Notes: generated by a model from the sequence alone, not told the origin. Positions 739-55,693 are shown, counted from the stretch's first letter. The stretch is DNA of 64,000 bases from Deltaproteobacteria bacterium RIFCSPHIGHO2_02_FULL_43_33 (GCA_001798165.1 MGRL01000007.1:455-64454); one strand, 5' to 3'. Translations and numbers: made by a program.

Positions 739-1926
739 ATGTCAGGCAATATACTCATAGTCGCAGGCGAGGCATCAGGAGATTTGCATGGCTCAAATCT
801 GATAAAATCATTAAAAGAGATAGACCAATCTCTCGTATTTTGCGGTGTTGGCGGAGAGAAAATGAAGTCCCTTGGATTTGATGCAATTGAAGATGCAAGG
901 GAGCTTGCGGTAGTCGGAATTTCAGAGGTTATTCGCAAGCTTGGCAGGCTCTATGCCGCATTTAATAAACTCAAAAAGGCGCTTGATGAAAGAAGGCCGG
1001 ATGTTGTTGTGCTTATAGATTATCCGGATTTTAATCTGCATGTCGCAAAAGAGGCTAAAAAAAGGAAGATTCCTGTAATATATTACATAAGCCCTCAGGT
1101 GTGGGCATGGAGGAGAGGGCGGGTTAAAAAGATAGCAAGGCTTATTGACAAGATGCTTGTTGTCTTTCCGTTTGAAGTAGATATTTACAAGAAGATGGGT
1201 GTGGATGTAGAATATGTCGGCCATCCGCTGTCTGCCGCAGTATCATGCCGGCTTTCTAAAGGAGATGCATTGGCTGAACTTGGAATGGTTCAATGTCAAA
1301 CAGTAGCGCTCTTGCCGGGCAGCAGAAGACAGGAGGTTGCAAGGCTTTTTCCTGTCATGATTTCGGCTGCCTCTGTGATAAAGAAAGAGATGCCGGATGT
1401 TCAATTTGTTTTGCCGGCAGCAGATACGATAGAGGATAATTTCATAAAGAGTTTTATTCATGATAATATTCAGATAAGAATTGTGAGGGGAAAATGTTAC
1501 GAGGCGCTCAGGGCTTCTGATGCTGCAATTGTTGCGTCCGGAACAGCAACGCTTGAAACCGCCTTGATGGAAGTTCCAATGGTTATTGTTTATAAACTCT
1601 CGTTTTTAACTGCTATCTTCGGAAGGTTGTTTGTGCATATTGATGATGTAGGACTTCCCAATATTGTGGCCGGCAGAAGGATAGTGCCGGAGCTTATCCA
1701 GAAGGAGGCTACTCCTTCTGCTCTTGCAGAGAATATTTTAAGGATTTTAAAGGATCGGGATACAAGAGAGAAAATGGTTTATGAACTTAAAGAGGTTAAA
1801 AACAAGATAGGCAAAGTTGACGCATCAAGGAATGCGGCAGAAAAGATTATGCATTATGTTAGAAGTAGGAGGATTGAGGCTGTAGGCAAAACCTCCAACC
1901 TCCAACTTCCAACTTCAAACTTTTAA
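739..1926 (+). CDS. lpxB: Lipid-A-disaccharide synthase
   Basis: 395 aa. The N-terminus is ILIVAGEASGDLHG..., typical of LpxB, and the family length fits. The C-terminal residues QLPTSNF are encoded by a heptamer array at 1892-1920. Confidence 0.9.
   Translation: MSGNILIVAGEASGDLHGSNLIKSLKEIDQSLVFCGVGGEKMKSLGFDAIEDARELAVVGISEVIRKLGRLYAAFNKLKKALDERRPDVVVLIDYPDFNLHVAKEAKKRKIPVIYYISPQVWAWRRGRVKKIARLIDKMLVVFPFEVDIYKKMGVDVEYVGHPLSAAVSCRLSKGDALAELGMVQCQTVALLPGSRRQEVARLFPVMISAASVIKKEMPDVQFVLPAADTIEDNFIKSFIHDNIQIRIVRGKCYEALRASDAAIVASGTATLETALMEVPMVIVYKLSFLTAIFGRLFVHIDDVGLPNIVAGRRIVPELIQKEATPSALAENILRILKDRDTREKMVYELKEVKNKIGKVDASRNAAEKIMHYVRSRRIEAVGKTSNLQLPTSNF
1892..1920 (+). repeat. Heptamer array (CCTCCAA/CTTCCAA)x4 encoding the lpxB C-terminus
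   Basis: cctccaacctccaacttccaacttcaaac. Confidence 0.8.
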
Positions 1927-1931
1927 TCATT

Positions 1932-3719
1932 ATGAAACTCTATCTTCGTCTCTTGAATTTTCTGCTTCACTATTGGGCGCAATTGGCATTGGCAGTATGC
2001 TTTATGATAACCCTTGCGCTTTCCAACGGCGCCTTTGCCTATCTTGTAGGGCCTGTCCTTAAATTTCTGTTTGCCAATAATACAGACAATACAATCAGGC
2101 TTATCCCGCTTGACATCTTCACCTTCGATAGGGCGCAGATGCTTGTAGTAGTGCCTATGGTCATCATTCTTGTTGCCCTCGTGAAAGGTTTGTCATTTTT
2201 TGGCCAGGCCTATTTTATGGGTTATATTGGCCAGAGGATAGTTGCCGATATACGGCAGTTTCTCTATAAGCATATCCTCAATCTTCCGATTTCTTATTTT
2301 ACCAAAAACTCAACAGGCGCATTGATGTCAAGGGTTACCAATGATGTGGGTATGCTGCAAAATACAGCAGCAGATTCAGTGGCGACATTGCTTCGAGAGA
2401 GCCTTACGATTATAGCGCTGGCCACAGTAGTCATAGGAAAGGACTGGAAGCTTGCAGCAGCAACCTTTATCGCATTTCCGCTTGCCATATATCCCATGGT
2501 GAGATTTAGCAAGAAGATGCGCAAGGTCTCTACACAGGGTCAGGCAAGCATGGGCGCCATGACAACGCTTTTGCACGAGGCAATAGCCGGCATAAAGATT
2601 GTAAAGGCATTCTGCATGGAAAAGTATGAGGAGCTTATGTTTGGCAAGGAGAATGAAAGGTTTTCAAGGTTCAGAATGAAGTCAATAAAAGTAAGGGCTA
2701 TTGCATCGCCGCTTATGGAGATGTTTGGGGCAATCGGCTTTGCGATTACCATATGGTATGCAGCATACAGAATTCAGAACAACACATTGAAACCCGAAGA
2801 CTTTATATCTTTCTTTGCGGCAGTTCTTATGCTGTATCAACCAATCAAGGCGCTCAATGGCGTTAATATGAATATCCAGCAAGGTCTTGCAGCAGCAGCG
2901 CGGGTATTTGAGCTTTTGGATGTCCCTCAAGAAACAAAGGATAAAGGGAATGCAAAGAGGATTGACAGCATACAACATAGCATTGAATTTCACGATGTAT
3001 CGTTCGGATATGGCGACAAGTGGGTTTTGAAAGGCATTAATCTCAAACTGAGAAAGGGAGAGATTATCGCAATAGTTGGGACAAGCGGCGTTGGCAAGAC
3101 TACCTTTGTAAACCTCCTTCCAAGATTTTATGATGTGACTGAAGGGGCTATACTTTTTGACGGCGCCGACATCAGAGATGTAACTAAAGATTCGCTCAGG
3201 GCCCAAATTGCGATCGTGTCGCAGCAGGTTGTTTTATTTAACGATACTGTAAAGAAGAACATTGCCTATGGAGATGTTGAAAGAAATGAGGCTGACATAA
3301 TAAATGCTGCAAAGGCCGCCAATGCCGATGTCTTTATTAGAAGACTGCCGCTGGGATATGATACGATAATCGGCGAAGGCGGCGTCAGGCTTTCAGGCGG
3401 CGAAAGGCAGAGGCTCTCCATTGCAAGGGCAATTCTCAAGAATGCGCCTATTCTTATCTTAGATGAGGCAACATCATCTTTGGATACTGAGTCAGAGATG
3501 GAAGTTCAGAAGGGATTGAATAATCTTGTGCATGGAAGAACCACCTTTGTTGTAGCTCACAGGCTTTCTACAGTGAGGAATGCAGACAGGATTATTGTAT
3601 TGGCTGACAGCGGAATAAAAGAGATGGGAAGGCATGAAGAGCTGTTAAGGCTTGGCGGAGAATACTCTCGTATTTATAAGATGCAGTTTCAGGGGAGTGA
3701 GTTAGAGGTTGGAGGTTAG
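1932..3719 (+). CDS. msbA: Lipid A export ABC transporter, fused permease/ATPase (MsbA-like)
   Basis: 595 aa with six N-terminal TM helices and a C-terminal ABC ATPase domain (Walker A GTSGVGKTT, ABC signature LSGGERQRLSIARA, Walker B ILILDEAT). Its position between lpxB and kdtA fits MsbA. Confidence 0.85.
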   Translation: MKLYLRLLNFLLHYWAQLALAVCFMITLALSNGAFAYLVGPVLKFLFANNTDNTIRLIPLDIFTFDRAQMLVVVPMVIILVALVKGLSFFGQAYFMGYIGQRIVADIRQFLYKHILNLPISYFTKNSTGALMSRVTNDVGMLQNTAADSVATLLRESLTIIALATVVIGKDWKLAAATFIAFPLAIYPMVRFSKKMRKVSTQGQASMGAMTTLLHEAIAGIKIVKAFCMEKYEELMFGKENERFSRFRMKSIKVRAIASPLMEMFGAIGFAITIWYAAYRIQNNTLKPEDFISFFAAVLMLYQPIKALNGVNMNIQQGLAAAARVFELLDVPQETKDKGNAKRIDSIQHSIEFHDVSFGYGDKWVLKGINLKLRKGEIIAIVGTSGVGKTTFVNLLPRFYDVTEGAILFDGADIRDVTKDSLRAQIAIVSQQVVLFNDTVKKNIAYGDVERNEADIINAAKAANADVFIRRLPLGYDTIIGEGGVRLSGGERQRLSIARAILKNAPILILDEATSSLDTESEMEVQKGLNNLVHGRTTFVVAHRLSTVRNADRIIVLADSGIKEMGRHEELLRLGGEYSRIYKMQFQGSELEVGG

Positions 3720-3730
3720 AGGTTGGAGGT
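3699..3730 (+). repeat. Heptamer array (AGGTTAG/AGGTTGG)x4 at the msbA stop
   Basis: gagttagaggttggaggttagaggttggaggt. Confidence 0.8.
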
Positions 3731-3768
3731 ATAATCATTTGCCTCAAACCTTATGCACGATTTTTGTT

Positions 3769-4451
3769 ATGAAGAATATATTAAATAAGCTTACTATCGC
3801 CATAGCGCCGTTTTTGGCGTCATTGCTGATAAAATTTCTTGCCATCACTATGAGAATTTCATATGTCAATTTTGAAAAGATACGAGATGATTGGCAAAGC
3901 GGCAAGAATGTGATTATTGCCTTTTGGCACGGAAGGCTTTTAATGATGCCCATTATGTATAAAGGCAGCGGCATAAGCGTACTGGTAAGCCAGCACAAGG
4001 ATGGCGAGTTAATCGCAAGAACTGTAAAGATATTTAATATTGATTCTGTCAGAGGCTCTTCTACGAGGGGCTGGTTGGGCGGCGTAAAGGGGCTTTTAAA
4101 GGCTGTCAAAAGAGGTAAAGACATAGCCATAACGCCTGATGGCCCAAAAGGCCCAAAGTTTAATGTGCAGATGGGAATAATACATTTAGCAAAGCTGACA
4201 GACCTTCCGATAATACCCATGAGCTTCAGCGCCTCAAAAAAAAAACTTTTAAGAGTTGGGACGGGTTTATCATACCTTATCCATTCTCAGAAGGCGTGTT
4301 CATCTGCGGCGATATTATAACTATTAATCATGATGCAACTGACGATGAATTGGAGCAAAAGAGGGTGGCATTGCAAAAAAGCCTCATGGAAATTACAGAA
4401 AGGGCGGACAGTTATTTCGTTGGAGGTAAGAGGATTAAGGTTAGAGGATAA
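3769..4451 (+). CDS. DUF374-family protein (lysophospholipid acyltransferase-like domain often adjacent to kdtA), interrupted by an apparent frameshift at an A10 homopolymer (4236-4245).
   Basis: Frame 1 reads MKNILNKL...FWHGRLLMMP...ITPDGPKGPK...SFSASKKK. After the A10 tract the protein continues in frame 3 as TFKSWDGFIIPYPFSEGVFICGDIITINHDATDDELEQKRVALQKSLMEITERADSYF and ends at a TAA at 4449-4451. An A11 or A8 tract would give a single ORF of about 227 aa. Confidence 0.6.
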
Positions 4452-4585
4452 AGGCAAAAGAAGTTGGAGGCAGGAGGATAGAGGTTAGAGGCAAATGCTT
4501 TCGCCTCCATCCTCAAACCTCACACCTCTAACATGCTTCTAAGTTCTTGCCTCCGACCTCTACCCTTTAACCTCATTCTAAATTC
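4420..4585. repeat. Inverted heptamer arrays of AGGTTAG type and their complement, forming a roughly 160-bp imperfect palindrome between DUF374 and kdtA
   Basis: ggaggtaagaggattaaggttagaggataaagg...ttggaggcaggaggatagaggttagaggcaaatgctttcgcctccatcctcaaacctcacacctctaac...cctccgacctctaccctttaacctc. Confidence 0.7.
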
Positions 4586-4587
4586 TG

Positions 4588-5913
4588 ATGTATCTCCTCT
4601 ACGACATCCTTCTTCATCTTTCCCTTGTTCTCCTTCTGCCATATTTCCTTTTTAAGATGCTCTTTGTCGGCAAATACAGAAAGGGCATTTGGGAGAGATT
4701 TGGTTTTATAGGAGAAGAAAAACTAAAAAACCTTTTTGCCGGCTGTGCTGAGTGCCATGGGAAAAAAATTGTTTGGTTCCATGCAGTTTCTGTCGGCGAG
4801 ACCAAAGCTGTCCTGCCGCTTGTCAGGCTTTTAAAGGAAAAACATCCGGATAGAAAAGTTGTATTTTCTACAGTTACACCCACTGGTAATGCAGTTGCTG
4901 AGAAAGAAGGCTGCCAATGGATTGACAGTCTTATATATTTTCCCTTAGATTTTAACTGGGTTGTTAATAAGATTGTAAGGTTAATAAAACCCAGTGTCTT
5001 TGTAGTGGTAGAAAAAGAGATATGGCCGAACATATTGAGGGTTTTGAAAAAAGATAAAGTCCCTGTATTAATTGTAAATGGTGTAATATCAGACCGCTCT
5101 TTCGAAAGATATAAGCTGTTTGGTTTCTTCTTTATAAGAATCTTTAAGAATATATCTGCTTTTTTAAGCCAGACAAAAAAAGACAGCGATAAGGCAATAG
5201 CATTAGGAATAGAAGCGCAGAGGGTTATGCTAACCGGCAATATGAAGTTTGATATAACACCCCCTCTTTGGCATCTTTCTGAGAGAGAGGCTTTTATGCA
5301 AGGGCTTGGTATAAAGGATAGCGATAAAATAGTTGTTGCAGGAAGCACGCACGCAGGCGAGGAAGAGATTATATTAAATGTCTTTCAAAGGCTTAAGCAT
5401 GAGTTTCCGAATTTAAAATTAATACTTGCACCGCGGCATCCGGAGAGATTTAATGAAGTGGAGAAACTTGTCAGAGAGAAAGGACTTGCTGTTGTAAGAC
5501 GAACTGCTGTAACTCCCGCCTCCCGCCTCCAGCCCCCTGCCTCCCATGACGTAATCCTTCTGGATACTATCGGAGAGCTTTCCATGATATACAGTCTTGC
5601 CACAGCAGCCTTTGTCGGTGGGACTCTTGTAAATATCGGCGGGCATAATCTTATGGAGCCGGCGCTTTATAGGAAGCCAGTGATTTACGGTCCATCTATA
5701 AAGAGCTGTCTTGAAATGGCAGAGATGCTTGAATCTGCAGGCGGAGCTATACGGGTAAATAGCGAAGAAACATTATTTGAGAATATAAGAGAGTTGTTAT
5801 TGGATGAAACCTATAGGCAAAATATTGGCAATGCTGCATACAGCGTAGTGGAGGCCAATAAAGGGGCAACAGAGAAATGTTTGAGAGTTTTAGAAAGGTT
5901 AATGGTGGAATAA
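4588..5913 (+). CDS. kdtA: 3-deoxy-D-manno-octulosonic acid (Kdo) transferase
   Basis: 441 aa. Motifs FHAVSVGETKAVLPLVRLLKEKHPDRKVVFSTVTPTG and the C-terminal glycosyltransferase region GGHNLMEPA are typical of KdtA/WaaA. Residues TAVTPASRLQPPASH at 5515-5545 are encoded by a heptamer-like repeat. Confidence 0.9.
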   Translation: MYLLYDILLHLSLVLLLPYFLFKMLFVGKYRKGIWERFGFIGEEKLKNLFAGCAECHGKKIVWFHAVSVGETKAVLPLVRLLKEKHPDRKVVFSTVTPTGNAVAEKEGCQWIDSLIYFPLDFNWVVNKIVRLIKPSVFVVVEKEIWPNILRVLKKDKVPVLIVNGVISDRSFERYKLFGFFFIRIFKNISAFLSQTKKDSDKAIALGIEAQRVMLTGNMKFDITPPLWHLSEREAFMQGLGIKDSDKIVVAGSTHAGEEEIILNVFQRLKHEFPNLKLILAPRHPERFNEVEKLVREKGLAVVRRTAVTPASRLQPPASHDVILLDTIGELSMIYSLATAAFVGGTLVNIGGHNLMEPALYRKPVIYGPSIKSCLEMAEMLESAGGAIRVNSEETLFENIRELLLDETYRQNIGNAAYSVVEANKGATEKCLRVLERLMVE

Positions 5914-5947
5914 TATTTAAGGGTATGTTATAAAAAACGAAGCCACA

Positions 5948-6010
5948 AGATTCAAGATGCAAGTTCCAAGTTTTTACTTGCGGCTTATAACTTATAACTT
6001 GCGACTATAA
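5948..6010. repeat. Inverted heptamer arrays, (CAAGATT)n then (TAACTTG)n, between kdtA and secA
   Basis: caagattcaagatgcaagttccaagtttttacttgcggcttataacttataacttgcgactataa. Confidence 0.7.
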
Positions 6011-6033
6011 ATAGAGAGGGAGAATTTAAAATC

Positions 6034-8745
6034 ATGTTAGGCGCAACTTTAAAAAAGATATTTGGAAGCAGGAATGAAAGGGAGCTTAAAAAGATACAGC
6101 CTGTTGTTGAAAAAATCAACAGCCTTGAGCCGGATATGAAAAAGCTTGAGGACGCTGAACTTGCGGCGCTTACGCCAAAATTCAAGGAAAGGCTTGCACA
6201 AGGCGAGACGCTGGATGATATATTGCCGGAGGCATTTGCTGTTGTGAGAGAAGTATCCAAGCGGAAACTGAACATGCGGCATTTTGATGTTCAGCTTTTG
6301 GGCGGGATAGTGCTGCATCAGGGCAAGATTGCAGAGATGAAGACAGGGGAAGGCAAGACCCTTGTTGCAACGTTGCCATTATATTTGAATGCGCTGGAAG
6401 GCAGAGGATGTCATCTTATTACCGTAAATGACTATCTTGCAAAGAGAGACACCCAGTGGATGGGGCCGATATATCACAGTCTCGGTTTATCAATCGGCGT
6501 AATACAGCACGATGCGTCATTTTTGTATGACCCGACCTATTCAGGGAGTGATGAGCGGCTTTTCCATCTGAGGCCGTGCAGCAGAAAAGAGGCATATCAG
6601 GCTGATATTACTTACGGCACAAACAACGAATACGGTTTTGATTATCTGCGGGACAATATGAAATTTTCTCTTGAAGATTATGTGCAGAGAGAGCTTAACT
6701 ATGCAATAGTTGACGAAGTGGACAGCATCCTTATCGATGAGGCAAGGACACCGCTGATTATCTCAGGCCCTGCTGAGGAATCAACGGATAAATATTACAC
6801 GATAGACAGGATAATACCAGGCCTTAAAAAAGATGCGCATTTTACCGTAGATGAAAAGGCAAGGCAGGTTATATTGACTGAAGAAGGGATAGAAAAGGTT
6901 GAGCATTTGCTGAATATAGAGAATTTATACGACCCGCGATATATTGAGGTTCTTCACCACGTAAATCAGGCATTACGGGCGCATGTGCTTTTTCGTAAGG
7001 ATGTAGACTATATTGTAAAGGAAGATCAGGTTATTATCGTGGATGAGTTTACCGGGAGGCTCATGCCTGGCCGGCGCTGGAGCGACGGGCTTCATCAGGC
7101 AATTGAGGCAAAGGAAAAGGCAAAGATAGAAAATGAAAACCAAACCCTTGCTACTATTACCTTTCAAAACTATTTCAGGATGTATAACAAGCTGTCAGGC
7201 ATGACAGGCACAGCAGACACAGAGGCATCTGAGTTTCATGCAATTTATAAGCTTGAAGTAATGATTATGCCTCCTAATAAACCTATGGGCAGGGCTGACC
7301 ATTCTGATTTAATCTATAAGACCGAGAAAGAAAAATTCAATGCAGTCATACGAGAGATAAAGGAATGGCACGAAAAGGGGAGGCCTGTTCTGGTCGGCAC
7401 CATATCCATTGAAAAATCAGAAAGGCTGGCGAACCTTCTTGGCAAACACGGCGTCAAACATCATGTGTTAAATGCGAAACACCACGAAAAAGAAGCAGAG
7501 ATAATATCTCAGGCAGGGAGGGTGGGCGCTGTAACACTCTCAACTAACATGGCCGGAAGGGGAACGGATATTATACTCGGCGGAAATTCTGAGGCAATGG
7601 CCGCGCAAAAGGCAGGAAAAGATGATACAACCGATGCATATAAATATGCGTTAGATGCCGCAAGGCAGCTTTGTGAGGAAGAAAAGAAGCAGGTGATTGA
7701 ACTCGGCGGCTTGCATATCATCGGTACGGAGAGACACGAATCAAGAAGGATTGATAATCAGCTCCGGGGCCGCGCAGGCAGGCAGGGCGACCCTGGTTCA
7801 TCAAGATTCTATCTCTCCCTGGAGGACGACCTGCTGCGTATATTCGGCTCCGAAAGAATTTCATCCATCATGGATAGATTGGGGATGGAAGAGGACGTTC
7901 CGATTGAGCATGGTCTTGTCAGCAAGGCAATAGAAAATGCCCAGAAAAAAGTGGAGGCGCATAATTTTGACATAAGAAAGCATCTGCTTGAGTATGACGA
8001 TGTAATGAACCAGCAGAGAATGGTGGTTTATAAATATAGGCGGCAGATACTTGCTCAGGAAGGATTGAGGGATATGGTTATCGGATTTATAGAGGATGTG
8101 GCAGAAGAGATAGGCTTTACTTATGTTGATGAAAAAAGCCATCCCGAAGATTGGGATAAGAAGACAATAAAGGATGTGGTCTATAAGCAATTTGATATGC
8201 AGTTTGACGATAAGGAATTTGAGACCATAGAAACGCGAGACAGGCTGATAGATGCTGTTTCTGAATGCGCAAAAAAGACATACGAGAAAAAAGCTGGGTC
8301 AATTGGAGAAGAGCCATTCAGACATCTGGAAAAAATAGTAATGCTTCATACCTTAGATACGTTGTGGAAAGACCATCTTCTTGCGATGGACCATCTGAAA
8401 GAGGGGATAGGGCTTCGGGGTTATGGCCAGAAAAATCCTTTGCAGGAATATAAAAAAGAAGGGTTCGAACTTTTTACAGATATGATATTCAGGCTGAAAC
8501 AGGAAGTATCAGAGAGGCTTTTTAAAGTACAGATTGCAAAGGAAGAAGAGGTGGCAAGCCTTGAGCCTGTAAAAAGACCGCAGAACTTTGTGCTCTCCAG
8601 AGGTGCGGAAGGCCAGAGGCAAGGGGGCATAGGCAAGGGGCAAGAAGAAAAGCCAAAACCGGTTCATGTGGAGGAGAAGATAGGCAGGAACGAGCCCTGC
8701 CCATGCGGAAGCGGGAAAAAGTATAAGAAGTGCTGCGGGAAGTAG
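6034..8745 (+). CDS. secA: Preprotein translocase ATPase SecA
   Basis: 903 aa with a DEAD motor ([33 protein letters not shown]). The C-terminus has the zinc finger [14 protein letters not shown]. Confidence 0.95.
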
Positions 8746-8748
8746 TTT

Positions 8749-9960
8749 ATGAAAATCGCAAATCGCAAATCACAAATCGCAAATTTTTCTGTCCCCGGCT
8801 TCAAAGCCGCCGGCATTTCGTGCGGTGTCAAAAAAAATGGCAATAAAGACCTTGCCCTGATTTATTCGGCGGTGCCTGCTGTTGCGGCAGGCGTATTTAC
8901 GAAAAACAAGGTCAAGGCCGCGCCTGTTTTGCTTGACATGGGGCGGATGAAAAAGGGATTTTGTCAGGCCGTGATTATCAACAGCGGGAACGCCAATGCC
9001 TGCACAGGCAAAAAGGGCATGGAAGATGCGGCGCGAATGGTTATAGCAGTTGAAGATGCGCTTGGAATAAAAAAGGGGCTCGCGATGGTTTCGTCAACGG
9101 GCGTTATTGGACAGAATCTTCAGATTGACAAAATAGAAAAGGGGATTCCGAAACTTGTTGCGTCCCTTTCATCAAAAGGGTGGAATGACGCGGCTCATGC
9201 GATTATGACAAGCGACGCCTTTCCCAAGTTTGCGTTTGAAAAATGCAGGATAGGCGGAAAAGAGATTTCTGTTTTAGGCATTGCCAAAGGCGCGGGCATG
9301 ATATGTCCGGATATGGCTACCATGTTGGCTTTTCTGGCAACTGATGCTGCAATAGAGCAAAAGACTTTACAAGCGATGTTGAAAAAAGCGGTTGATAATT
9401 CGTTTAACTCTATTACTGTTGACGGAGATACATCAACGAATGATACGGCGCTGATACTTGCAAACGGGAAAGCAGGAAACAAACAATTCACAATTCACAG
9501 TTCACAGTTCACGCTTTTTTGTGAGATGTTAGAAAGGGTTTGTTTACAGTTGGCAAAGATGATTGTCATGGACGGCGAAGGCGCGACAAAGTTGTTGGAG
9601 TTTAATGTCATCGGCGCAAAGACAGACAGCGACGCAAAAAAGGTTGCGGAGAGTGTTGCGAATTCACCGCTTGTGAAGACTGCATTCTTTGGCGAGGATG
9701 CAAACTGGGGAAGGATAATTGCGGCAATAGGCCGCTCAGGCGCATACATGAAAGAAGAAAAGGTAAATATATATTTCAATGGTGTGCCTGTTGTATTAAA
9801 AGGCCTTGACGCAGGACGAGAAAAGGATGCGGCAAAGACCGTTAAGAATGAGAATATCTGTATAAGAATTGAGATGGGTTTGGGCAAAGGCAAAAAGACA
9901 GTTTGGGCAAGCGATCTGTCGTATAAGTATGTGAAGATAAATGCGGCATATAGAACATAA
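8749..9960 (+). CDS. argJ: Bifunctional ornithine acetyltransferase / N-acetylglutamate synthase
   Basis: 403 aa with ...ATMLAFLATDAAI... and TVDGDTSTNDT, and the C-terminal signature. The N-terminal KIANRKSQIAN is encoded by an (AAATCGC)x4 array. An internal stretch KQFTIHSSQFTLF comes from a heptamer array at 9484-9513. Confidence 0.85.
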   Translation: MKIANRKSQIANFSVPGFKAAGISCGVKKNGNKDLALIYSAVPAVAAGVFTKNKVKAAPVLLDMGRMKKGFCQAVIINSGNANACTGKKGMEDAARMVIAVEDALGIKKGLAMVSSTGVIGQNLQIDKIEKGIPKLVASLSSKGWNDAAHAIMTSDAFPKFAFEKCRIGGKEISVLGIAKGAGMICPDMATMLAFLATDAAIEQKTLQAMLKKAVDNSFNSITVDGDTSTNDTALILANGKAGNKQFTIHSSQFTLFCEMLERVCLQLAKMIVMDGEGATKLLEFNVIGAKTDSDAKKVAESVANSPLVKTAFFGEDANWGRIIAAIGRSGAYMKEEKVNIYFNGVPVVLKGLDAGREKDAAKTVKNENICIRIEMGLGKGKKTVWASDLSYKYVKINAAYRT

Positions 9961-9963
9961 AGA

Positions 9964-10029
9964 CCGTTATCCGTGTCCGTTGTCCGTGTCCGTGAAGAAA
10001 ATTTTAACGGTCACGGTTCACGGTCACGA
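9964..10029. repeat. Heptamer arrays (GTCCGTG)n then gaagaaaattttaa then (CGGTCAC)n. Left copy of the direct repeat flanking the HEPN gene.
   Basis: ccgttatccgtgtccgttgtccgtgtccgtgaagaaaattttaacggtcacggttcacggtcacg. Confidence 0.75.
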
Positions 10030-10051
10030 GAGACGGTATTTCGGAGGTTTT

Positions 10052-10474
10052 ATGGAAGGTTTGGCAAAAGAGGCGGACAGATGGTTCAGGCAGGCAGAGA
10101 ATGATTTGAAGGCAGCGCAGTGGAGCCAGCAGGGAGGTTTTCATGCCCAAACATGTTTTTGGGCGCAGCAGTCAGCAGCAAAGGCATTAAGGGCATTTTT
10201 ATTTATAAATAAAGAAGATGCAAAGGAAACCAGGTCTGTCAGTGAGCTCCTTGAAAGGTGCCTTACGTATGATGAGGAATTTAAATCAGTTATTGAACAT
10301 AGCAGCAGACTGGATATATATTATAAGACAACACGTTATCCTGACAGCCTTCCGGGCGGCATACCAGCAGAGCTTATTTCCAGCAGGGATTCCAAAGAGG
10401 CTGTGAAGATTGCATCAGATATACTATCTCTTGTTGAGGAAAAGAGAAAGGCATATGTGCCGGAGAGGATGTAA
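10052..10474 (+). CDS. HEPN-domain protein. It is an orphan with no adjacent nucleotidyltransferase.
   Basis: MEGLAKEADRWFRQAENDLKAAQW...CFWAQQSAAKALRAFL...YYKTTRYPD matches the HEPN (PF05168-like) pattern. A GGAGG ribosome-binding site sits 4 nt upstream of the ATG at 10052. The six-frame ORF beginning at 9941 extends back across the heptamer repeat. Confidence 0.65.
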   Translation: MEGLAKEADRWFRQAENDLKAAQWSQQGGFHAQTCFWAQQSAAKALRAFLFINKEDAKETRSVSELLERCLTYDEEFKSVIEHSSRLDIYYKTTRYPDSLPGGIPAELISSRDSKEAVKIASDILSLVEEKRKAYVPERM

Positions 10475-10478
10475 AAAC

Positions 10479-10550
10479 CCGTGAACCGTGACCGTGTTCC
10501 GTGTCTGTGAAAAAATCTTTAACGGTCACGGCCAACGGACACGGATAACG
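10479..10550. repeat. Right copy of the direct repeat flanking the HEPN gene
   Basis: ccgtgaaccgtgaccgtgttccgtgtctgtgaaaaaatctttaacggtcacggccaacggacacggataacgg. Confidence 0.75.
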
Positions 10551-10571
10551 GAAGTTGCAAGGAGCCCTCTA

Positions 10572-12931: not shown

Positions 12932-13041
12932 AAAGTTAACCCCTCCCAGCCTCCCCTTTAGCAAAGGGAGGAAGCAAATCCCCCCTCTTTTGTAAAGAGG
13001 GGGTTAGGGGGAGTTAGAAAAGGGCAAGAGGAGTTAAACTT

Positions 13042-14400: not shown

Positions 14401-14456
14401 CTATTTAATCTTTATGCTATAGTTAACAGGCTGTTGAAAAAGGCATCAACAGCCTT

Positions 14457-14539: not shown

Positions 14540-14608
14540 GGAGTTTGTTGAGTTTTTCAACAAACTGTTAAGCCAATAATACCTATTGGAAGGGGGGAGA
14601 GGAAAAAT

Positions 14609-47803: not shown

Positions 47804-48952
47804 ATGACATTATCCAAAAATAAAAAAGCAATCCTTGCCCTTGCAGACGGCACGGTATTTGAAGGCCATTCCTTCGGCGCAGAAGGCGAGTCAATAGGCG
47901 AAGTGGTTTTTAACACCTCTATGTGCGGGTATCAGGAGGTGCTTACCGACCCGTCATATAAAGGCCAAATGGTCGCCATGACATATACACAGATAGGGAA
48001 CTATGGCGTGGATGAAGAGGATATAGAATCAAACAAGCTTTGGCTTGAGGGTTTTATAGTAAAGGAATATTGCGATTATCCGAGTAATTGGCGGGCAAAA
48101 GAGACATTAGGCAATTATCTTAAACGCAATAATATTGTTGGTATAAAAAGCATAGATACAAGGGCGCTTACAAGGCATTTAAGGGATAATGGCGCAATGA
48201 ACGGGGTCATCTCAACACTTGGTTTAGATCCGGTAAGGCTTGTTAAAAAGGCAAAAGAGTTTCCTTCAATGGCCGGCCTTGACCTGGCAAAAGAGGTAAC
48301 CTGCAAAGAATCTTATCGCTGGAATCAAGGGCTGTGGGATTTAGAAGAAGGTTACGGTCACGGTTCACGGCCACAGTTTACGGTGATTGCCTATGATTTT
48401 GGCATGAAATTCAACATATTGAGAAATCTTATTAATGTTGGTTGTGATGTTACGGTTGTTCCTGCTTCAACATCTGCCGAAGATGTTTTGAAGATGAATC
48501 CTGACGGCATATTCCTTTCCAACGGGCCGGGCGACCCCGATGCCGTTACTTATGCAATTGAGAATGTCCGAAAGCTGATTGGCAAGAAACCGATATTCGG
48601 CATCTGCCTCGGACATCAGATACTGGGACTTGCACTTGGCGGAAAGACATATAAACTTAAATTCGGCCATCACGGCGGTAATCAACCTGTTAAGGATTTG
48701 ACTACAAACAAGGTTGAAATAACATCACAGAATCATGGATTTGCCGTGGATGTGGATTCTTTAAAAGGTATTGCGGAATTGACCCATGTAAACTTAAATG
48801 ATAAGACAGTTGAGGGGCTTGCGCATACAAAACTGCCGCTCTTTTCTGTCCAGTATCACCCTGAGGCATCTCCGGGTCCTCACGATTCTTCTTATCTCTT
48901 TAAACGTTTTACAGACATGATGGAGGGGAAGTGGAATTTCAAGAGTATATAG
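47804..48952 (+). CDS. carA: Carbamoyl-phosphate synthase small (glutaminase) subunit
   Basis: [10 protein letters not shown] at the N-terminus and a GATase catalytic GICLGHQ. An in-frame heptamer insert [11 protein letters not shown] lies at 48351-48386. Confidence 0.95.
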
Positions 48953-49742: not shown

Positions 49743-52700
49743 ATGCCGAAGAGAACGGACATAAAAAAGATTTTGATTATCGGCGCAGGGCCCATTGTCA
49801 TCGGCCAGGCGTGCGAGTTTGATTATTCCGGCACGCAGGCGTGCAAGGCGTTGAAGGAAGAGGGGTATGAGGTTGTGCTCATCAACTCAAATCCCGCAAC
49901 AATTATGACAGACCCAGGCCTTGCTGACATGACTTATATTGAGCCTGTTATACCAGAGGTGGTTGAAAAGATAATTGAAAAGGAAAGGCCTGATGCGCTT
50001 CTGCCTACTATGGGAGGCCAGACAGCCCTTAATATAGCTGTATCCCTTGCAGAGTCAGGTGTTTTAAAAAAATATAATGTTGAGTTGATAGGCGCAAAAC
50101 TTCCTGCAATAAAAAAGGCAGAGGATAGAGAGCTGTTTAAAGAGGCTATGGAGAGGATTGGTCTTGAGGTGCCGAGGAGCGGATATGCCAAGACCATTAC
50201 AGATGCCTTAAGTATATTAGAAACAATGAGCTATCCTGTTATCATAAGACCTTCCTTTACGCTTGGCGGCACAGGCGGAGGCATTGCATACAATGCTGAG
50301 GAATTCAAGGAAATGGTCCAGTATGGTCTGGATGCAAGCCCTTACAGCGAGATTTTGATAGAAGAATCTGTCATAGGTTGGAAGGAATATGAGCTTGAGG
50401 TGATGAGGGATACTAAAGATAATGTGGTGATTATATGCTCAATAGAGAACTTTGATCCAATGGGTGTTCATACAGGCGACTCAATTACGGTTGCGCCTGC
50501 TCAGACTCTAACGGACAAAGAATACCAGATAATGAGAGATGCTGCCTTAAAGATTATACGGGAGATTGGCGTTGACACAGGCGGTTCCAATATCCAGTTT
50601 TCTGTGAACCCTGATAACGGCAAGATATGTATAATTGAGATGAACCCAAGGGTTTCCCGTTCTTCGGCCCTTGCAAGCAAGGCAACCGGCTTCCCCATTG
50701 CAAAGATTGCGGCAAAGCTGGCTGTTGGTTATACGCTCGATGAAATTCCAAACGACATAACCAAGAAAACGCCTGCAAGTTTTGAGCCGACTATTGATTA
50801 TGTTGTTACGAAGATTCCGAGATTCACATTTGAAAAATTCCCGCAGGCAGATGCGACCCTGACAACGCAGATGAAGAGCGTTGGCGAGGTCATGGCAATA
50901 GGGAGGACATTTAAAGAATCCCTCCAAAAGGCGATGAGGTCTCTTGAGATAGGGAGTTATGGTTTTGAGATAAAGAAATCAGTAAGGTATGATGAGCCGG
51001 GCGAATATGTAGAATTAATAAAAGAGAAACTTCGGGTTCCGAACTGGGAAAGGCTCTGGTATACAGGAGATGCATTCAGGTGCGGCATGACCGTTGATGA
51101 GATATTTGAGTTGTCAAAAATAGACCGATGGTTTTTGAATAATATAAAAGAGATTGTAGGTTTTGAAGAAGAAATCAGGAAACAGGAAGAACTTTCGCCT
51201 GATTTATTAAGGCAGGCAAAGGAACTTGGTTTTTCTGACAGGCGCATTGCACAACTTTGGGCAACAAGAAAAAATACAGGGGCTAAAAGATGCCAAGCGC
51301 CTGCCGGTAAAGAGATAGAAACAAAAGAATATGAAATAAGGAAGAAAAGAGTTGAGGCCGGTATTTTGCCTGCCTATAAAACAGTGGACACATGCGGTGC
51401 TGAGTTTGAGGCGCATACGCCGTATCTGTATTCAAGTTATGAAAGACCGTTTTATACTATTATGGAAGGCAGCAAATCCCCCCAACCCCCCTTTGCTAAA
51501 GGGGGGCAAGGAGGGATTTCAGAGTGTGAAGCAAACCCCACCAATCGTAAAAAGGTTGTAATACTCGGAAGCGGCCCAAACAGAATTGGCCAGGGTATTG
51601 AGTTTGATTACTGCTGTGTCCATGCCTCCTTTGCCTTAAAAGAGGAAGGTATTGAGACAATCATGGTAAACTGCAATCCTGAGACGGTTTCAACTGACTA
51701 TGACACATCGGACAGACTCTACTTTGAACCGCTCACCTTTGAGGACGTGATGAACATTATTGAAAAGGAAAAACCGTTCGGCGTAATCGTCCAGTTCGGA
51801 GGACAGACGCCGCTGAAACTGGCAAAAGCATTGAAAGAAGCTGGAGTAAATATTCTTGGAACATCTCCTGACAGTATTGATATTGCAGAAGATAGATTTA
51901 GATTCCGTGAGCTATTGAATAAGTTGCAGCTTCGCTATCCTGAAGGTTTTGACATTAGACCGAATAAAAAAGCATTTGAGATGGGTATATATGCTGGAAT
52001 TGATGGACTCGCCGAAACTCATTATCCAATTGTTGTTAGACCATCTTATGTGTTAGGTGGCAGGGCTATGGCAATTGTTTATAATCAAGCTGAATTACAT
52101 GAATATCTGAAAAAATTGATTATTTCTTCAGACAAAGACTTGGATATATATGCAGATCGTTTTTTGAACGACGCTATAGAGGTGGATGTTGACTGTGTAA
52201 GCGACGGAAAAGATGTGGTCATCGGCGGCATCATGGAGCATATCGAAGAGGCGGGCATTCATTCTGGCGATTCGGCCTGCTCAATCCCGCCATATTCTCT
52301 GGGCGTAAAAGTTATTGACGATATAAGAAAGCAGACAATAGCTCTCGCAAAAGAATTGAAGGTTATCGGCCTGATGAATATCCAGTTTGCAGTCAAGAAG
52401 ACAGGGTCAAGGGGCAAGGGTCAAGGGACAGAGGAATGCGAGATATATGTTCTTGAGGTAAATCCAAGGGCATCCCGGACTGTGCCTTTTGTAAGCAAGG
52501 CAATTGGCAAACCATTGGCAAAGATTGCGGCAAAGGCAATGCTTGGCAAGACATTAAAAGAACTTAGACTTACGGAAGAAATTGTACCGCAGCATACATC
52601 TGTAAAAGAGGCAGTATTCCCATTTATAAAATTCCCTGGTGTTGACACTATCCTTGGCCCAGAGATGAAATCAACAGGCGAGGTTATGGGCATAGACGCG

Positions 52701-53195: not shown

Positions 53196-53197
53196 AT

Positions 53198-55693
53198 GTG
53201 AAAAAATATATGGATTTAACCACGAATGACCCTTTTTCTCAAATCATCTCAAACCTTCTCAAGCCCATCGTATTTGCATCAAAAGACAACTTTGCCCATC
53301 TTTCTGCAATAAAAAATATTGAAGTTTTAGCGCAAAATCTTTGCCAGCAGGCTTTAACCCTTTCTATTTCAGACAGTAATGCCAAAAAAGTCAAAGAGAT
53401 TCAAAATGTATTTGAAGGTTTTGATGCGCTGGCATTGGAAGGAAAAAAAGATAAGATAAGAAAGGCGTTTGATATTATAAAAGAGATAAAGGGTCGGGGG
53501 GGCGAAGGGCCAAAGGGGCAAGCATTTTATTTGAACCCTCAAACCCCAGAACCCTTGGCCTCTGATTTATATGAGATAAAAACCAGATTATCCAAACTTT
53601 CCACACCGCTTAAAGATATTAAAGGCATCGGGCCTAAGGTTGCTGATATCTTCAAAAAGAAAGGGCTGGAAACCGTTGAGGATGTATTATATTTTCTGCC
53701 CCTGAGATATGAAGACAGGCGCCAGATGAAAAAGATAGCCCTTTTGAGATTTGGAGCAAAAGATGTTGCATCAGGCGAGATAATGGCAATGGGAGAGGTT
53801 TTTTATGGCAGACGAAGGGTGTTTGAGATTAGCATAGGCGATGGGAGCGGTTTTTTAAGATTAAAGTGGTTTCATTACAGGCTTCCCTTGATGAAGAAGA
53901 GATATAAGATAGGCCAAAGGCTGATAGTTTATGGCGAGATTGGTATGTTTAATGGCCAGAAAGAGATAATCCATCCTGATGTAGAAATTTTTGAGAAAGA
54001 CGATGCGTTGGATACAGTTAATTTTAACAGCATTGTGCCGGTTTATTCACAGGTCGGTAATCTGCACCAGAAGACACTCCGTAAGTTTGTAAGAAACATT
54101 ATTAATGAATATGGAGAACATGTGATTGGTAGTGTGCCTTCAGCCATTCTCCAACAATGCAAGCTTCTTGAATTGCCGGCAGCTGTTGCGGAGATTCACA
54201 AACCTACTCAATTAAGTGCAATAGAATCAAAAGACTGGCTGCCAAGAAAGAGCCTTGTCTTTGATGAATTGTTTTGCCTTGAAATGGGGCTTGCTTTAAA
54301 AAAAGGGAATAACGAAAAAGAAAACGGTATTGCATTTAATGTGGGGGCAGATTTAAAATCTGCCCCCATGGTTGAAAATTTTAGAAACATGCTGCCGTTT
54401 AAATTAACCGCAGCGCAAGAGAGAGTTATCTCGGAAATAAAAAAAGGTATGTCAGAGCCGCACCCCATGAACCGTCTGATACAGGGTGATGTTGGTTCAG
54501 GCAAGACGGTTGTTGCGTTTATTGCCGGCCTCATTGCCATTGAAAACCATTACCAATCTGCAATTATGGCTCCGACAGAGATACTTGCAGAGCAGCATTA
54601 TCTCAACATCCACAAATACGCAGAAGGGCTTGGTATAAAGACTGTCCTTTTAACCAGCAGCCTTACAAAATCTGAAAGGGCAGCGATTTTGGAAGGAATA
54701 AAGAAGGGCGATATTAATCTCGTCATCGGCACACATGCTATTATTCAGGAAGATATAGACTTTAAGAGGCTCGGAGTAGCAATTATAGATGAGCAGCACA
54801 GGTTTGGCGTTATCCAGAGGGCGATGCTTAAGAAAAAAGGGACGAACCCTGACATACTTGTCATGACAGCAACACCTATACCAAGGACACTGGCCATGAC
54901 AGTTTTTGGAGACCTTGATGTTTCAGTTATTGATGAGCTGCCTCCAGGGAGAAGGCCGATTCAGACAAAGGTTTTCAGGGAAAAGGATAGAGAACTTGTT
55001 TATAAGCTTATTAAAGCTGAACTTGGCAAAGGCAGGCAGGCCTATATTGTTTATCCACTCATAGAAGAATCTGAAGATCTTGATTTAAGGGATGCCACAA
55101 AGATGGCGGAACATTTGCAAAAGGATATATTCCCTGAATATACTATAGGCCTTTTGCACGGAAGGATAAAGGCTGAGGAAAAGGAAAATATTATGAAGGC
55201 ATTTAAGTCAAAAGAAATAAATATCCTTGTGTCAACCACTGTTATAGAAGTGGGGATTGATGTGCCGAATGCAACAATTATGGTAATAGAGCATGCAGAG
55301 CGCTTCGGCCTTTCCCAGCTTCATCAGCTCCGTGGAAGAGTAGGGAGGGGAGGGCACGACTCATATTGTATCCTCCTTGCCGGAAAGGTAGGTTCTCTGG
55401 ATACATATCAGAGGCTAAAGGTTATGGAGAATACAAACGATGGTTTTAAAATAGCGGAAGAGGATTTAAATATCCGCGGGCCGGGCGATTTTCTCGGAAC
55501 AAGACAATCAGGCTTGCCTGATTTCAGGGTTGTAAATCTGCTGACAGATGCATCACTCCTTCAAAAAGCGAGGGGAGAGGCATTTAATATAATAAAGAAC
55601 GATCCAGAGCTTACTGCCTCAGAACATAAAGCACTCAAAGAAATAGTTAAGGCACGCTGGAAGGGAAGAATGGAGCTGGCGCAAATTGGGTAA
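53198..55693 (+). CDS. recG: ATP-dependent DNA helicase RecG
   Basis: Wedge domain followed by SF2 helicase motifs (GDVGSGKT, DEQHRFG). The C-terminus has TDASLLQKARGEA. A heptamer insert lies at 53490-53522. Confidence 0.9.
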   Translation: MKKYMDLTTNDPFSQIISNLLKPIVFASKDNFAHLSAIKNIEVLAQNLCQQALTLSISDSNAKKVKEIQNVFEGFDALALEGKKDKIRKAFDIIKEIKGRGGEGPKGQAFYLNPQTPEPLASDLYEIKTRLSKLSTPLKDIKGIGPKVADIFKKKGLETVEDVLYFLPLRYEDRRQMKKIALLRFGAKDVASGEIMAMGEVFYGRRRVFEISIGDGSGFLRLKWFHYRLPLMKKRYKIGQRLIVYGEIGMFNGQKEIIHPDVEIFEKDDALDTVNFNSIVPVYSQVGNLHQKTLRKFVRNIINEYGEHVIGSVPSAILQQCKLLELPAAVAEIHKPTQLSAIESKDWLPRKSLVFDELFCLEMGLALKKGNNEKENGIAFNVGADLKSAPMVENFRNMLPFKLTAAQERVISEIKKGMSEPHPMNRLIQGDVGSGKTVVAFIAGLIAIENHYQSAIMAPTEILAEQHYLNIHKYAEGLGIKTVLLTSSLTKSERAAILEGIKKGDINLVIGTHAIIQEDIDFKRLGVAIIDEQHRFGVIQRAMLKKKGTNPDILVMTATPIPRTLAMTVFGDLDVSVIDELPPGRRPIQTKVFREKDRELVYKLIKAELGKGRQAYIVYPLIEESEDLDLRDATKMAEHLQKDIFPEYTIGLLHGRIKAEEKENIMKAFKSKEINILVSTTVIEVGIDVPNATIMVIEHAERFGLSQLHQLRGRVGRGGHDSYCILLAGKVGSLDTYQRLKVMENTNDGFKIAEEDLNIRGPGDFLGTRQSGLPDFRVVNLLTDASLLQKARGEAFNIIKNDPELTASEHKALKEIVKARWKGRMELAQIG

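Follow-up and report, generated by a model that had tools for sequence, protein, structure and literature searches.

Short tandem arrays of seven-nucleotide units (heptamers) are scattered through a stretch of 64,000 nucleotides from Deltaproteobacteria bacterium RIFCSPHIGHO2_02_FULL_43_33 (GCA_001798165.1, MGRL01000007.1:455-64454), which is referred to here as the window, with positions counted from its first letter. The arrays exist in large excess over chance, are restricted to one clade, lie in frame in loops of conserved enzymes where they occur inside genes, vary between strains in steps of 21 nt, and are close to perfect within a species whilst diverging in sequence between species. 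They are probably heptanucleotide microsatellites of the kind described as short tandemly repeated repetitive (STRR) sequences or 'long simple sequence repeats' (SSRs), arising by slippage, filtered by selection and forming a genome-wide trait of a single uncultured groundwater clade.

Heptamer arrays in the window and its clade

The window, which covers 64 kb of the genome, was searched with Tandem Repeats Finder and with our own scoring scan, run by period, and codon-block shuffles served as the control. Tandem Repeats Finder returned about 46 rows with a period of 7, 14 or 21, spanning positions 1890-53175. Our own scan found 33 arrays of period 7 and 23 of period 14 in the window, against a shuffle expectation of about 0.05 arrays per period; periods 10, 13 and 15 gave one or two arrays each, and periods 4-6, 8-9 and 11-12 gave none. 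The frequency of matches at lags 7 and 21 was also above that at neighbouring lags. The arrays of the window are real and far above chance, and no other period is comparably in excess. Merging gave a working set of 44 arrays. An earlier reading made from the sequence without knowledge of its origin (the sequence-only reading) had described more than 40 degenerate 7-nt arrays and had proposed that the period-7 signal be set against shuffled sequence; its count and its signal both hold, but its copy number of up to about 20 does not, as the longest homogeneous arrays have about nine units and the run at 17335-17423, left undivided (89 nt), has about 13. Arrays in gene interiors are 25-35 nt long (about four to five units) and those elsewhere 15-66 nt, with the maximum of 89 nt at 17335-17423; a length peak at about 30-34 nt is also present outside gene interiors. 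The comparison of density inside and outside coding sequence, which had likewise been proposed, put the density at 0.28 per kb inside genes (12 arrays, with gene interiors totalling 43.0 kb) and at 2.3 per kb for gene edges plus spacers (32 arrays, 14.0 kb in total), which is 8 times greater.

The same arrays have been assembled repeatedly. Five independent assemblies match positions 27830-49164 at 99.99-100% identity without gaps; two come from ENA, two from JGI samples and one from NCBI (GCA_003511005.1). A sixth (L086) is identical over 11.5 kb apart from one 21-nt deletion in an array. Because independent assemblies reproduce the arrays, they are not an assembly artefact, a possibility that the sequence-only reading had asked to be checked. 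The arrays, at no more than 89 nt, are also below the k-mer sizes (k141 and k127) named in two contig records, and arrays are found at orthologous sites in nine related species. No point was found in support of an assembly or sequencing artefact, to which we assign next to no probability; that reading is refuted.

The nearest genomes are metagenome-assembled genomes (MAGs) of uncultured groundwater 'Deltaproteobacteria'/Thermodesulfobacteriota, and the window sequence is also recorded as Deltaproteobacteria bacterium RIFCSPLOWO2_12_FULL_43_16/GWA2_43_19 from the Rifle aquifer; an origin in Beggiatoaceae or a cyanobacterium, considered at first, was rejected on these grounds. In nine related-species loci, 136 kb in all, there are 59 period-7 arrays (0.435 per kb), whereas periods 6, 8 and 9 have zero, one and zero arrays, respectively. 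Seventy-one loci of other lineages, totalling 1,079 kb, hold 20 period-7 arrays (0.019 per kb), and periods 6, 8 and 9 are about equally common there; some arrays do occur in a few unrelated MAGs (L023, L044 and the Bacteroidota locus L072). The difference between 0.435 and 0.019 arrays per kb bears out the lineage specificity that had been proposed, and the heptamer arrays are a trait of a lineage and not of a single locus.

The gene calls of the sequence-only reading proved correct. The window encodes lpxB, an msbA-like ABC transporter, kdtA, secA, argJ, a histidine kinase, a sigma-54 regulator of the NtrC type, a type IV pilus cluster, aroC, aroK, aroB, accB, accC, purB, purC, carA, carB and recG, and every gene from 0.7 to 57.7 kb is on the + strand. 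The last 10 kb (53600-64000) is without heptamer arrays, the remaining window holding about 0.8 per kb. Genes in this last part (lpxK, a lipid A acyltransferase, lptF/G, an OmpR-type regulator and an M16 peptidase) are of mixed orientation, which is tracked by the purine skew; the change in skew near 57 kb was considered as a replication landmark and rejected, the GC skew following gene orientation.

Arrays inside genes and their turnover

Gene interiors hold 12 arrays, four in AroC, two in the NtrC-like regulator and one each in ArgJ, PurB, CarB, KdtA, PilQ and the histidine kinase, all of which are in frame and lie in loops or linkers. Structure alignments and an AlphaFold2 model of AroC uphold the earlier statement that in-frame arrays sit in loops of conserved enzymes: in the model the array residues are all coil with a predicted local distance difference test (pLDDT) value below 50, although the model is mediocre (mean pLDDT 65) and can bear no finer conclusion about the arrays than low-confidence coil. 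A heptamer array passes through all three frames within 21 nt, and because it is thus read in every frame an interior unit must be stop-free in all three sense frames. Indeed, interior units are stop-free throughout with the sole exception of AAGCAGT in the histidine kinase, which contains TAA, and the only deviant unit of that array, AAGCATG, stands at the position where a regular unit would place TAA in frame. Outside gene interiors, 14 of 33 unit consensuses contain a stop triplet. Purine-rich sense units give polar peptides (for example SQKSEVR, GQGARGK and SLQPSAF) and pyrimidine-rich units give the hydrophobic signal-peptide cores of PilP and PilQ; SLQPSAFSLQPV is an example of the predicted translation of an AroC/NtrC array.

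Ortholog alignments had been proposed to confirm that the arrays are insertions. Most interior arrays are indeed loop insertions, but aroC site 2 and NtrC site 1 occupy loops of near-native length. Coordinates below refer to the + strand. The three arrays reported in aroC were correctly placed, except that the first is a pair of adjacent arrays: site 1a (32580-32610, aa 90-100) has 4.4 copies of GTTCCGA, and site 1b (32614-32645, aa 101-112) has 4.6 copies of AACACGA and is an imperfect inverted partner of 1a. Jointly they add 11 aa relative to AroC 1q1l, and they form a weak hairpin (z = -2.0). Site 2 (32851-32883, aa 180-191; GATTTCG, 4.7 copies) has a net length difference of about 0 to +3 aa from 1q1l, and site 3 (33193-33222, aa 294-304; GAGGCAA/GGGGCAA, 4.3 copies) adds 9 aa. 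The two identical inserts described in the sigma-54 regulator are both present as identical 33-nt arrays. Site 1 (13234-13266, aa 65-75 of the receiver domain) has 4.7 perfect copies of AGCCTTC encoding SLQPSAFSLQP and adds a net 2 aa only relative to NtrC1 4l4u, and therefore the loop is replaced; relatives hold diverged arrays at the equivalent position. Site 2 (14209-14241, aa 390-400) lies in the linker before the helix-turn-helix domain, has 4.7 copies of CAGCCTT, adds 6 aa relative to 4l4u and is polymorphic.

Arrays were also found where they had been reported in argJ, the histidine kinase, pilQ and kdtA. The argJ interior array (9483-9512, aa 245-255; ACAATTC/ACAGTTC, 4.3 copies) adds 7 aa (21 nt) relative to structure 1vz6, and that of the histidine kinase (12222-12256; AAGCAGT, 5 copies) lies between HisKA and HATPase. 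In pilQ (30844-30877, aa 468-479) 4.9 copies of GAGTCAG encode KSQESGARSQESK; at the orthologous site the unit is the same in L001 and L004, degenerate in L002 and absent in L003. The degenerate kdtA/waaA array (5513-5545, aa 309-320; CTCCCGC) encodes TPASRLQPPAS and adds 10 aa relative to structure 2xci, and in a relative about 91% identical 6 of its 10 residues are changed, against about 8% elsewhere. The purB array (45863-45889, aa 387-396; AGGAGCA/AGGGGCA) adds 7 aa relative to structure 1f1o. One of the two arrays claimed for carB stands (52403-52427, aa 899-907; AGGGTCA/AGGGGCA) and adds 12 aa relative to Escherichia coli CarB 1bxr.

Three stretches that had been listed as arrays were rejected as such. 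The other carB candidate (51475-51520) is a G+C-rich palindrome. The carA repeat (48351-48386, + strand) has an irregular 6/7-nt period (TCACGG/TTCACGG), is returned by Tandem Repeats Finder at period 13 only and, compared with E. coli CarA, entails no net insertion. The recG stretch (53490-53522, + strand) is degenerate and G-rich, lies in an N-terminal extension of RecG, yields no period-7 row from Tandem Repeats Finder and no net insertion relative to RecG 1gm5, and is too degenerate to call, although it is possibly a decayed array of the AAGGGGC type.

The carB palindrome belongs to a second repeat class. G+C-rich palindromes of the form AATCCCCCC..CCCCCCTTTGCTAAAGGGGGG..GGGATT also invade coding sequence in frame, and that of carB sits in a 25-aa stretch without a counterpart in E. 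coli CarB. The class is also present in AroC of L006, L013, P0002 and P0030 and in the NtrC-like protein of P0143 and L088, and relatives have 'PPLxKGG'-type versions in the same loops that are occupied by heptamer arrays elsewhere in the species compared. CarB has 1162 aa against 1073 in E. coli, and its inserts that are not heptameric include one of about 19 aa (51258-51320) and one of about 8 aa (about 51939-51990).

Strain-level comparison was drawn from the NtrC-like protein, cluster members and Logan contigs, with variation read from consensus assemblies, and AroC relatives at 78-100% identity were not found. The sequence L086/P0122 is 100% identical to positions 3042-14558 except for an exact deletion of 14209-14229 (21 nt, three units), which shortens the NtrC-like protein from 452 to 445 aa. 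A PilQ variant, P0257, is without residues 5-11 (7 aa, 21 nt) of the AATTACG array. Five other assemblies gave no length variant at about 25 arrays. The copy-number variation between strains that had been suggested does exist, in these two 21-nt variants; its suggested likeness to contingency loci does not follow, both variants being in frame and in housekeeping genes. In L087, which is about 95% identical, the arrays at the 5' end of pilP are 96% conserved, like their flanks, with one 3-nt deletion, and at the 5' end of pilQ the AATTACG array is missing and the neighbouring arrays are of other units (47% identity against 95% in the flanks), the total length difference still being in frame.

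Species at about 78% nucleotide identity have arrays at the same three AroC sites, at the PilQ and AroB sites and at the intergenic junctions, and the unit is shared only sometimes. The second site of aroC illustrates this: the window has GATTTCG and L001-L004 have AAGTTCA, in equal register and with equal boundaries and length. Identity between the species is 20/36 (56%), like that of third codon positions (55%), the arrays being 92-100% periodic within each species, and in L004 a unit variant is found in three of the four copies. Such perfection within arrays combined with divergence between species is the signature of concerted evolution. At site 3 the relatives have arrays of AAGGGGC or CAGAAGT of equal total length, and at the position equivalent to site 1a L002 has GAGTTCG. 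The arrays of aroB and pilQ form a series from perfect to decayed across the relatives.

Four AroC relatives (P0022, P0024, P0027 and P0034) join the N-terminal half of one subgroup to the site-3 array and C-terminal half of another. The mosaic arrangement of these sequences suggests that members of the clade have recombined. Between L002 and L005 the aligned segment of aroB shows no difference, but aroC sites 1 and 2 differ.

Hairpins, recurring units and gene edges

Most non-coding arrays are inverted pairs forming hairpins, which the sequence-only reading had omitted. About 22 of the 32 arrays outside gene interiors belong to inverted pairs, in which one array is followed, 2-30 nt further on, by an array of a nearly complementary unit. 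The transcripts of these pairs have long stems with about one mismatch per unit, several of which are followed by a U-run, and they fold with z = -4 to -8.5 against dinucleotide shuffles, single interior arrays being unstructured (z about 0). Rfam at the gathering threshold returned a single tRNA in the window, and the hairpins match no described RNA family. Gene junctions in related species also hold hairpins, in which both arms consist of different units.

The units are not locus-specific, as had been stated, but recur as families at distant loci and across genomes. Families in the window include GGCAAG/AGGCTAT (nine arrays), GGAGGTT (six), TCTACC (six), AGTCAGG/AGAATTC (five) and AATTACG (five). 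Counting rotations and either strand, 48 pairs of arrays more than 300 nt apart have units closer than two mismatches, against 24 +/- 4.9 in a scrambled-unit control (maximum 39 in 300 trials). The families are also locally clustered, 18 inverted and 12 direct pairs within 3 kb matching at 12/14 or more. In the clade sample AAGTCAG was seen seven times, and TAACTGA-type arrays are present in the relatives L003 and L004. The classical STRR1-3 units are reportedly CCCCAGT, TTGGTCA and CAACAGT; these are absent from the window, and AAACAGT and AACAGTG in L002-L004 are one mismatch away.

Some units extend to other phyla. In IMG/VR, exact four-unit arrays of AATTACG occur in 29 stretches and those of AGTCAGG in eight, against three, one and one for three composition-matched scrambles; the contigs concerned have 30-72% G+C and often many such arrays, again with inverted pairs. 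Among 72,556 plasmids, 12 records have AATTACG arrays, 11 from cyanobacteria (Tolypothrix PCC 7601 among them) as well as Bernardetia, and six have AGTCAGG arrays, five from cyanobacteria; the hosts for the two units include Nostoc, Tolypothrix PCC 7601, Microchaete, Dolichospermum, Planktothrix and Pseudanabaena. AGCCTTC arrays were confined to three Ralstonia megaplasmids, and AAGGGGC, AGGCTAT, GGAGGTT, GTCTACC and four scrambled controls had no match in that plasmid set. The finding of AATTACG and AGTCAGG in plasmids of cyanobacteria such as Nostoc, Tolypothrix PCC 7601 and Dolichospermum agrees with the likeness to STRR sequences that had been noted. It had also been held that the invasion of coding sequence was special to the present arrays, but cyanobacterial AATTACG arrays lie in frame (ITNYELR...) in Pseudanabaena modB ('SNYELRITNYQ') and in a Dolichospermum helicase ('ITNYELRITNYEL'), the corresponding PilQ peptide of the window being ITNYDLRITNL. 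The sharing of units with cyanobacteria is real for some units and is not statistically secured, as few units and controls are involved and the plasmid test alone is not significant. A full-text literature search for array sequences returned nothing relevant. Among the IMG/VR contigs, some classified as viral (L099, L093, L094 and L118) have five to 14 arrays of one unit (AATTACG or AGTCAGG) in roughly 10 kb, many of them as inverted pairs; at 55-64% G+C, AATTACG is compositionally foreign there.

Intergenic arrays, given here without strand, are mostly hairpins between consecutive genes. An inverted pair at 4424-4532 joins AGGTAAG/AGGATAA (4424-4454, purine-rich) to CCTCAAA (4511-4532) with z = -3.7, and a short array of CTTATAA (2.4 copies) lies at 5984-6000. 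Between aroC and aroK (33566-33625), AGGCTAT (33566-33589) is paired with ATTGCCC/CTTGCCC (33595-33625; z = -2.2), a hairpin that is kept in L001 and L003 and has a CAGAATA:TTCTGAC hairpin in its stead in L002 and L005. The pepP-accB hairpin (37141-37208; z = -5.1) pairs (GAATTAG/GAATTGC)n with (TAATTCG/TAATTAG)n before a T-run, and at this junction relatives have hairpins of other units. Between accB and accC a nested hairpin (37706-37816; z = -6.6) sets AGGCTAT/AGGCAAT and GGAGGTT arms against AAACCTC and ATAGCCC arms, and between lplA and a TPR gene (39946-40011; z = -8.5) (AATTACG/AATTAAA)n is paired with (TAATTCC)n, with one mismatch per unit and a T-run.

The minor-pilin/PilY1 cluster (15760-24210) has four related hairpins of the type (AGTAGAN)n-loop-(TCTACNN)n, each between consecutive pilin-like genes, and two of the hairpins have the common loop GGAAAGTGTTTCCCTGTCTACC. 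The one at 15817-15894 ends in a T-run (z = -4.1); that at 16606-16710 precedes the N-methyl motif encoded by the pilin-like gene that follows it (z = -5.5); that at 17273-17423, with an extra (TCTACCN)n run, lies upstream of a PilW-like N-methyl motif (z = -8.0); and a hairpin of the TCTACC family at 24118-24210 lies downstream of the PilY1-like gene (z = -6.9). In L001 the same hairpin family is found between pilO and pilP.

Further arrays lie at gene edges (+ strand). That at the 3' end of lpxB (1890-1922; AACCTCC/AACTTCC) encodes the last 12 residues of LpxB, as had been reported, and the msbA-like gene ends in GTTAGAG/GTTGGAG units of the GGAGGTT family (3701-3730). The two arrays bracket the msbA-like gene, 1.8 kb apart, and are near-perfect complements (predicted duplex -45.7 kcal/mol); aroC site 3 is likewise complementary to 33595-33625 upstream of aroK, 373 nt away (-44.1 kcal/mol). 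Such long-range pairs could be chance, given the recurrent unit families. The 5' array of argJ (8753-8784; AAATCGC, 4.6 copies) begins 4 nt past the ATG, and the Pfam ArgJ match starts at residue 19. A 199-aa open reading frame (ORF) begins with 4.3 perfect copies of AGAAGTC (18539-18568; RSQKSEVRSQ), a unit that recurs at aroC site 3 of L002, L003 and L005. The 5' chain of pilP (28810-28964) passes from AGAATTC through AGAAGCC to AGGAGTC (28810-28875), followed by GGCTATA (28883-28909) and CCTCTTG (28928-28964), the last of which encodes the PilP lipoprotein signal-peptide core LLPLASCLLLLAGC. That of pilQ (29452-29560) consists of AATTACG (29452-29483), AAATCGT/AAATCTA (29487-29518) and TGCTTTC (29526-29560); its first two arrays form a hairpin (z = -5.1) and its third encodes the PilQ signal-peptide core LSAFCILLTVF.

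Hairpins with irregular 6/7-nt arms (CCGTGT/CCGTTGT with ACGGTC/ACGGTTC) flank a HEPN-domain gene at 9964-10035 and 10478-10560, and the carA stretch 48351-48386 is one arm of this hairpin family. HEPN, Uma2 (PD-(D/E)XK nuclease-like) and HepT-like genes stand among the housekeeping genes at 9941-10474, 14609-15163 and 25699-26184; cyanobacteria, like other genomes rich in repeats, have expanded sets of these families.

Origin of the arrays and comparison with known repeat systems

The microsatellite account is the best supported and agrees with the polymorphism in 21-nt steps, with the decay series and concerted evolution, and with the strong excess of arrays beyond gene interiors; in it we infer that slippage is the molecular event and that selection filters the outcome. 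Whole 7-nt units would be added or removed when strands misalign as DNA is synthesised. Between genes and at gene ends any length would be tolerated, and many inverted pairs would give hairpins in the transcript; inside genes the survivors would be units stop-free in all three sense frames, limited in length change to three-unit steps (21 nt, 7 aa) and confined to surface loops, linkers, signal peptides and termini. Repeated contraction and re-expansion (between about 1.7 and about 4.7 units), or misalignment followed by realignment, could keep arrays near-perfect while the unit drifts, which would give concerted evolution.

A number of observations weigh against this account. Slippage alone does not predict the recurrence of unit families at distant loci, nor the excess of AATTACG and AGTCAGG in IMG/VR or their presence in cyanobacterial plasmids, and it leaves unaccounted for both the period of seven itself and the mode of about 4.3-4.9 copies outside genes. 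Non-coding arrays also cluster near 30-34 nt, and because they peak there too the modal length is not simply an effect of the reading frame. At aroC site 3 different species have unrelated units (2/7 in-register matches) at equal total length, which could mean replacement rather than drift in place, and some arrays replace the native loop without lengthening it. In an essential gene the intermediates with one or two extra units are impassable, and because they are barred the birth of an array there needs a single 21-nt event or another route. Finally, there are two polymorphisms only, the five other assemblies showing none.

Part of this evidence bears on a different reading, in our judgement rather unlikely, by which the arrays would be propagating repeat families: arrays or whole inverted-pair hairpins would be copied to new sites by template switching, by gene conversion from other arrays or by an unknown element like a REPIN or a miniature inverted-repeat transposable element (MITE), slippage merely adjusting copy number later, and the units shared with cyanobacteria could reflect horizontal transfer of the machinery making or using them. 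The recurrence of unit families on both strands at distant loci and their local clustering speak for copying, as do the identical 33-mers of the two NtrC arrays, the unrelated units of equal length at the same sites in different species, the presence or absence of a whole AATTACG array between strains about 95% identical, the same-junction hairpins with different units in both arms between species and the narrow length mode of about 30-34 nt. To these may be added the finding of AATTACG and AGTCAGG arrays, but not of scrambled units, in plasmids of cyanobacteria and Bernardetia, and the TAACTGA-type arrays in L003 and L004, TAACTGA being known from several phyla (MacGregor 2015, PMC4679880). 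The flanks of the arrays, however, are without conserved termini or target duplications, the unit changes gradually along one array (28810-28875), and both strain variants are clean three-unit deletions, as slippage yields. Four of the seven window units have no plasmid match, the sharing across phyla is partial and short of statistical security, and no gene for a transposase or a RAYT-like protein came up when the window ORFs were scanned with Pfam.

Selection on the arrays as cis-elements is possible, though we would not expect it to be the answer. Inverted pairs would then be functional hairpins between co-directional genes, acting as terminators, attenuators, mRNA stabilisers or processing sites, single arrays would be platforms for a nucleic-acid-binding protein with a 7-nt register, and interior arrays would be by-products. 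The hairpins fold far beyond shuffles (z = -4 to -8.5), several precede a T-run, they persist at junctions while both arms swap unit (a covariation of whole arms), and the pilP 5' arrays are 96% conserved in the 95%-identical relative; translational regulation by repeats upstream of start codons has moreover been proposed (MacGregor 2015, PMC4679880). Yet more than 20 different units in one genome argue against one specific binding protein, the unit sequence differs between species, single interior arrays are unstructured and no Rfam family is matched. That the arrays are contingency loci, in which a change in unit number switches genes or varies surface proteins phase-variably, seems very improbable: a copy-number difference does exist at two arrays between near-identical strains, and several arrays are in type IV pilus genes and at gene 5' ends, but both variants are of three units and in frame, about 25 arrays are invariant across five assemblies, and most of the affected genes encode essential biosynthetic enzymes, for which an off-state would be lethal. 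Phase variation is accordingly set aside, whilst a copying or writing process and selection on RNA hairpins are both live and are compatible with slippage. A broader and more speculative idea, which we hold to be doubtful, is that the arrays are traces of a sequence-dependent system, one that makes and spreads repeats or one that binds them in heptamer register, common to the groundwater clade, cyanobacteria, giant sulfur bacteria and a few Bacteroidota and possibly horizontally transferred. Such a writing system would set the size of arrays at about 4.7 units (about 33 nt), would often lay them down in inverted pairs and could overwrite a loop or an older array; if true, it would account for the shared units (AATTACG, AGTCAGG and TAACTGA) and common modal length in unrelated taxa, for the family structure within genomes and for unrelated units of equal length at one site.

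Returning to the microsatellite account, heptanucleotides are reported to be the most frequent class of long SSR in many bacteria, with slippage put forward as the process behind them (Mrazek 2007, as cited in PMC4679880 and PMC4692102); the heptanucleotide STRR repeats are described from heterocystous cyanobacteria, including Calothrix/Tolypothrix PCC 7601 (Mazel 1990, as cited in PMC4692102 and PMC4679880). Like STRR sequences and long SSRs, the present arrays have a 7-nt unit in few copies, are many and dispersed, fall into several families per genome and lie mostly outside genes, and AATTACG and AGTCAGG arrays are present in cyanobacterial plasmids too, where in-frame genic cases are also found. 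They differ in their host, a sigma-54-bearing, lipopolysaccharide-making 'Deltaproteobacteria' MAG and not a heterocystous cyanobacterium, and in two features that are not described in the literature examined, the density in core enzymes (12 arrays in 43 kb) and the polymorphism in 21-nt steps. TAACTGA repeats are known from Beggiatoaceae, Thiocystis violascens, Cyanobacteria and a few Bacteroidetes (MacGregor 2015, PMC4679880); as direct repeats they have two to six copies, mostly intergenic near start codons and in some cases inside ORFs, there in the stop-free orientation, and close strains differ mainly by indels whose lengths are multiples of 7 nt (PMC4679880). The present arrays resemble that system in being direct heptamer repeats with a unit found across unrelated phyla, and TAACTGA-type arrays occur in two relatives of the window. 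However, the Beggiatoaceae genome has one dominant unit, related heptamers being seldom repeated, whereas more than 20 units are found here, and its ORF-internal cases are mostly in peripheral or hypothetical proteins instead of in loops of core enzymes.

The GGGAATC and GGGGA(T/C)T repeats of Xanthomonas and Nostoc have a marked preference for about four units (Rehm 2015, PMC4692102), which has been ascribed to G-quadruplex formation, the units being G-rich; they lie between co-directional genes, with occasional inverted pairs and 7-11% overlapping ORFs, and vary in length and sequence between close species (PMC4692102). The units of the window are mostly unable to form quadruplexes, yet they have the same modal length. 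Rickettsia palindromic elements (RPEs) are mobile repeats of about 150 bp found in frame in housekeeping genes at fold-compatible positions (PMC10969869), and the present arrays are like them in their in-frame presence in many unrelated housekeeping genes. Unlike RPEs, with their family consensus, palindromic ends and conserved peptide, they are tandem heptamers of 25-35 nt without conserved ends or anything common in their flanks; the carB palindrome at 51475-51520 comes nearer to the RPE idea than the heptamer arrays do. With REP/REPIN sequences and terminator-like MITEs they have in common that inverted pairs, in families, lie between co-directional genes and fold into long hairpins with imperfections, but their arms are periodic heptamer arrays, and no RAYT (Y1 transposase) was present among the ORFs scanned in the 64-kb window.

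The clade provides a second, unrelated and well-sampled host of heptamer repeats, for which dozens of related MAGs and several assemblies at strain level exist and in which the rate of turnover, expansion in place as against writing-in, and co-occurring genes become testable. Arrays in essential genes offer a built-in reporter through selection on the reading frame, as three-unit changes alone survive, and they are a clear bacterial case of microsatellites remodelling the loops, linkers and signal peptides of conserved proteins; for the annotation of MAGs, low-complexity inserts of this kind in core proteins are genuine and not frameshift errors. Set beside the systems above, the arrays are a new host lineage for a known heptamer-repeat phenomenon and not a new kind of element, to which they add a high load in core enzymes, three-unit polymorphism, concerted evolution, co-varying hairpin arms and two more units also found in cyanobacteria.

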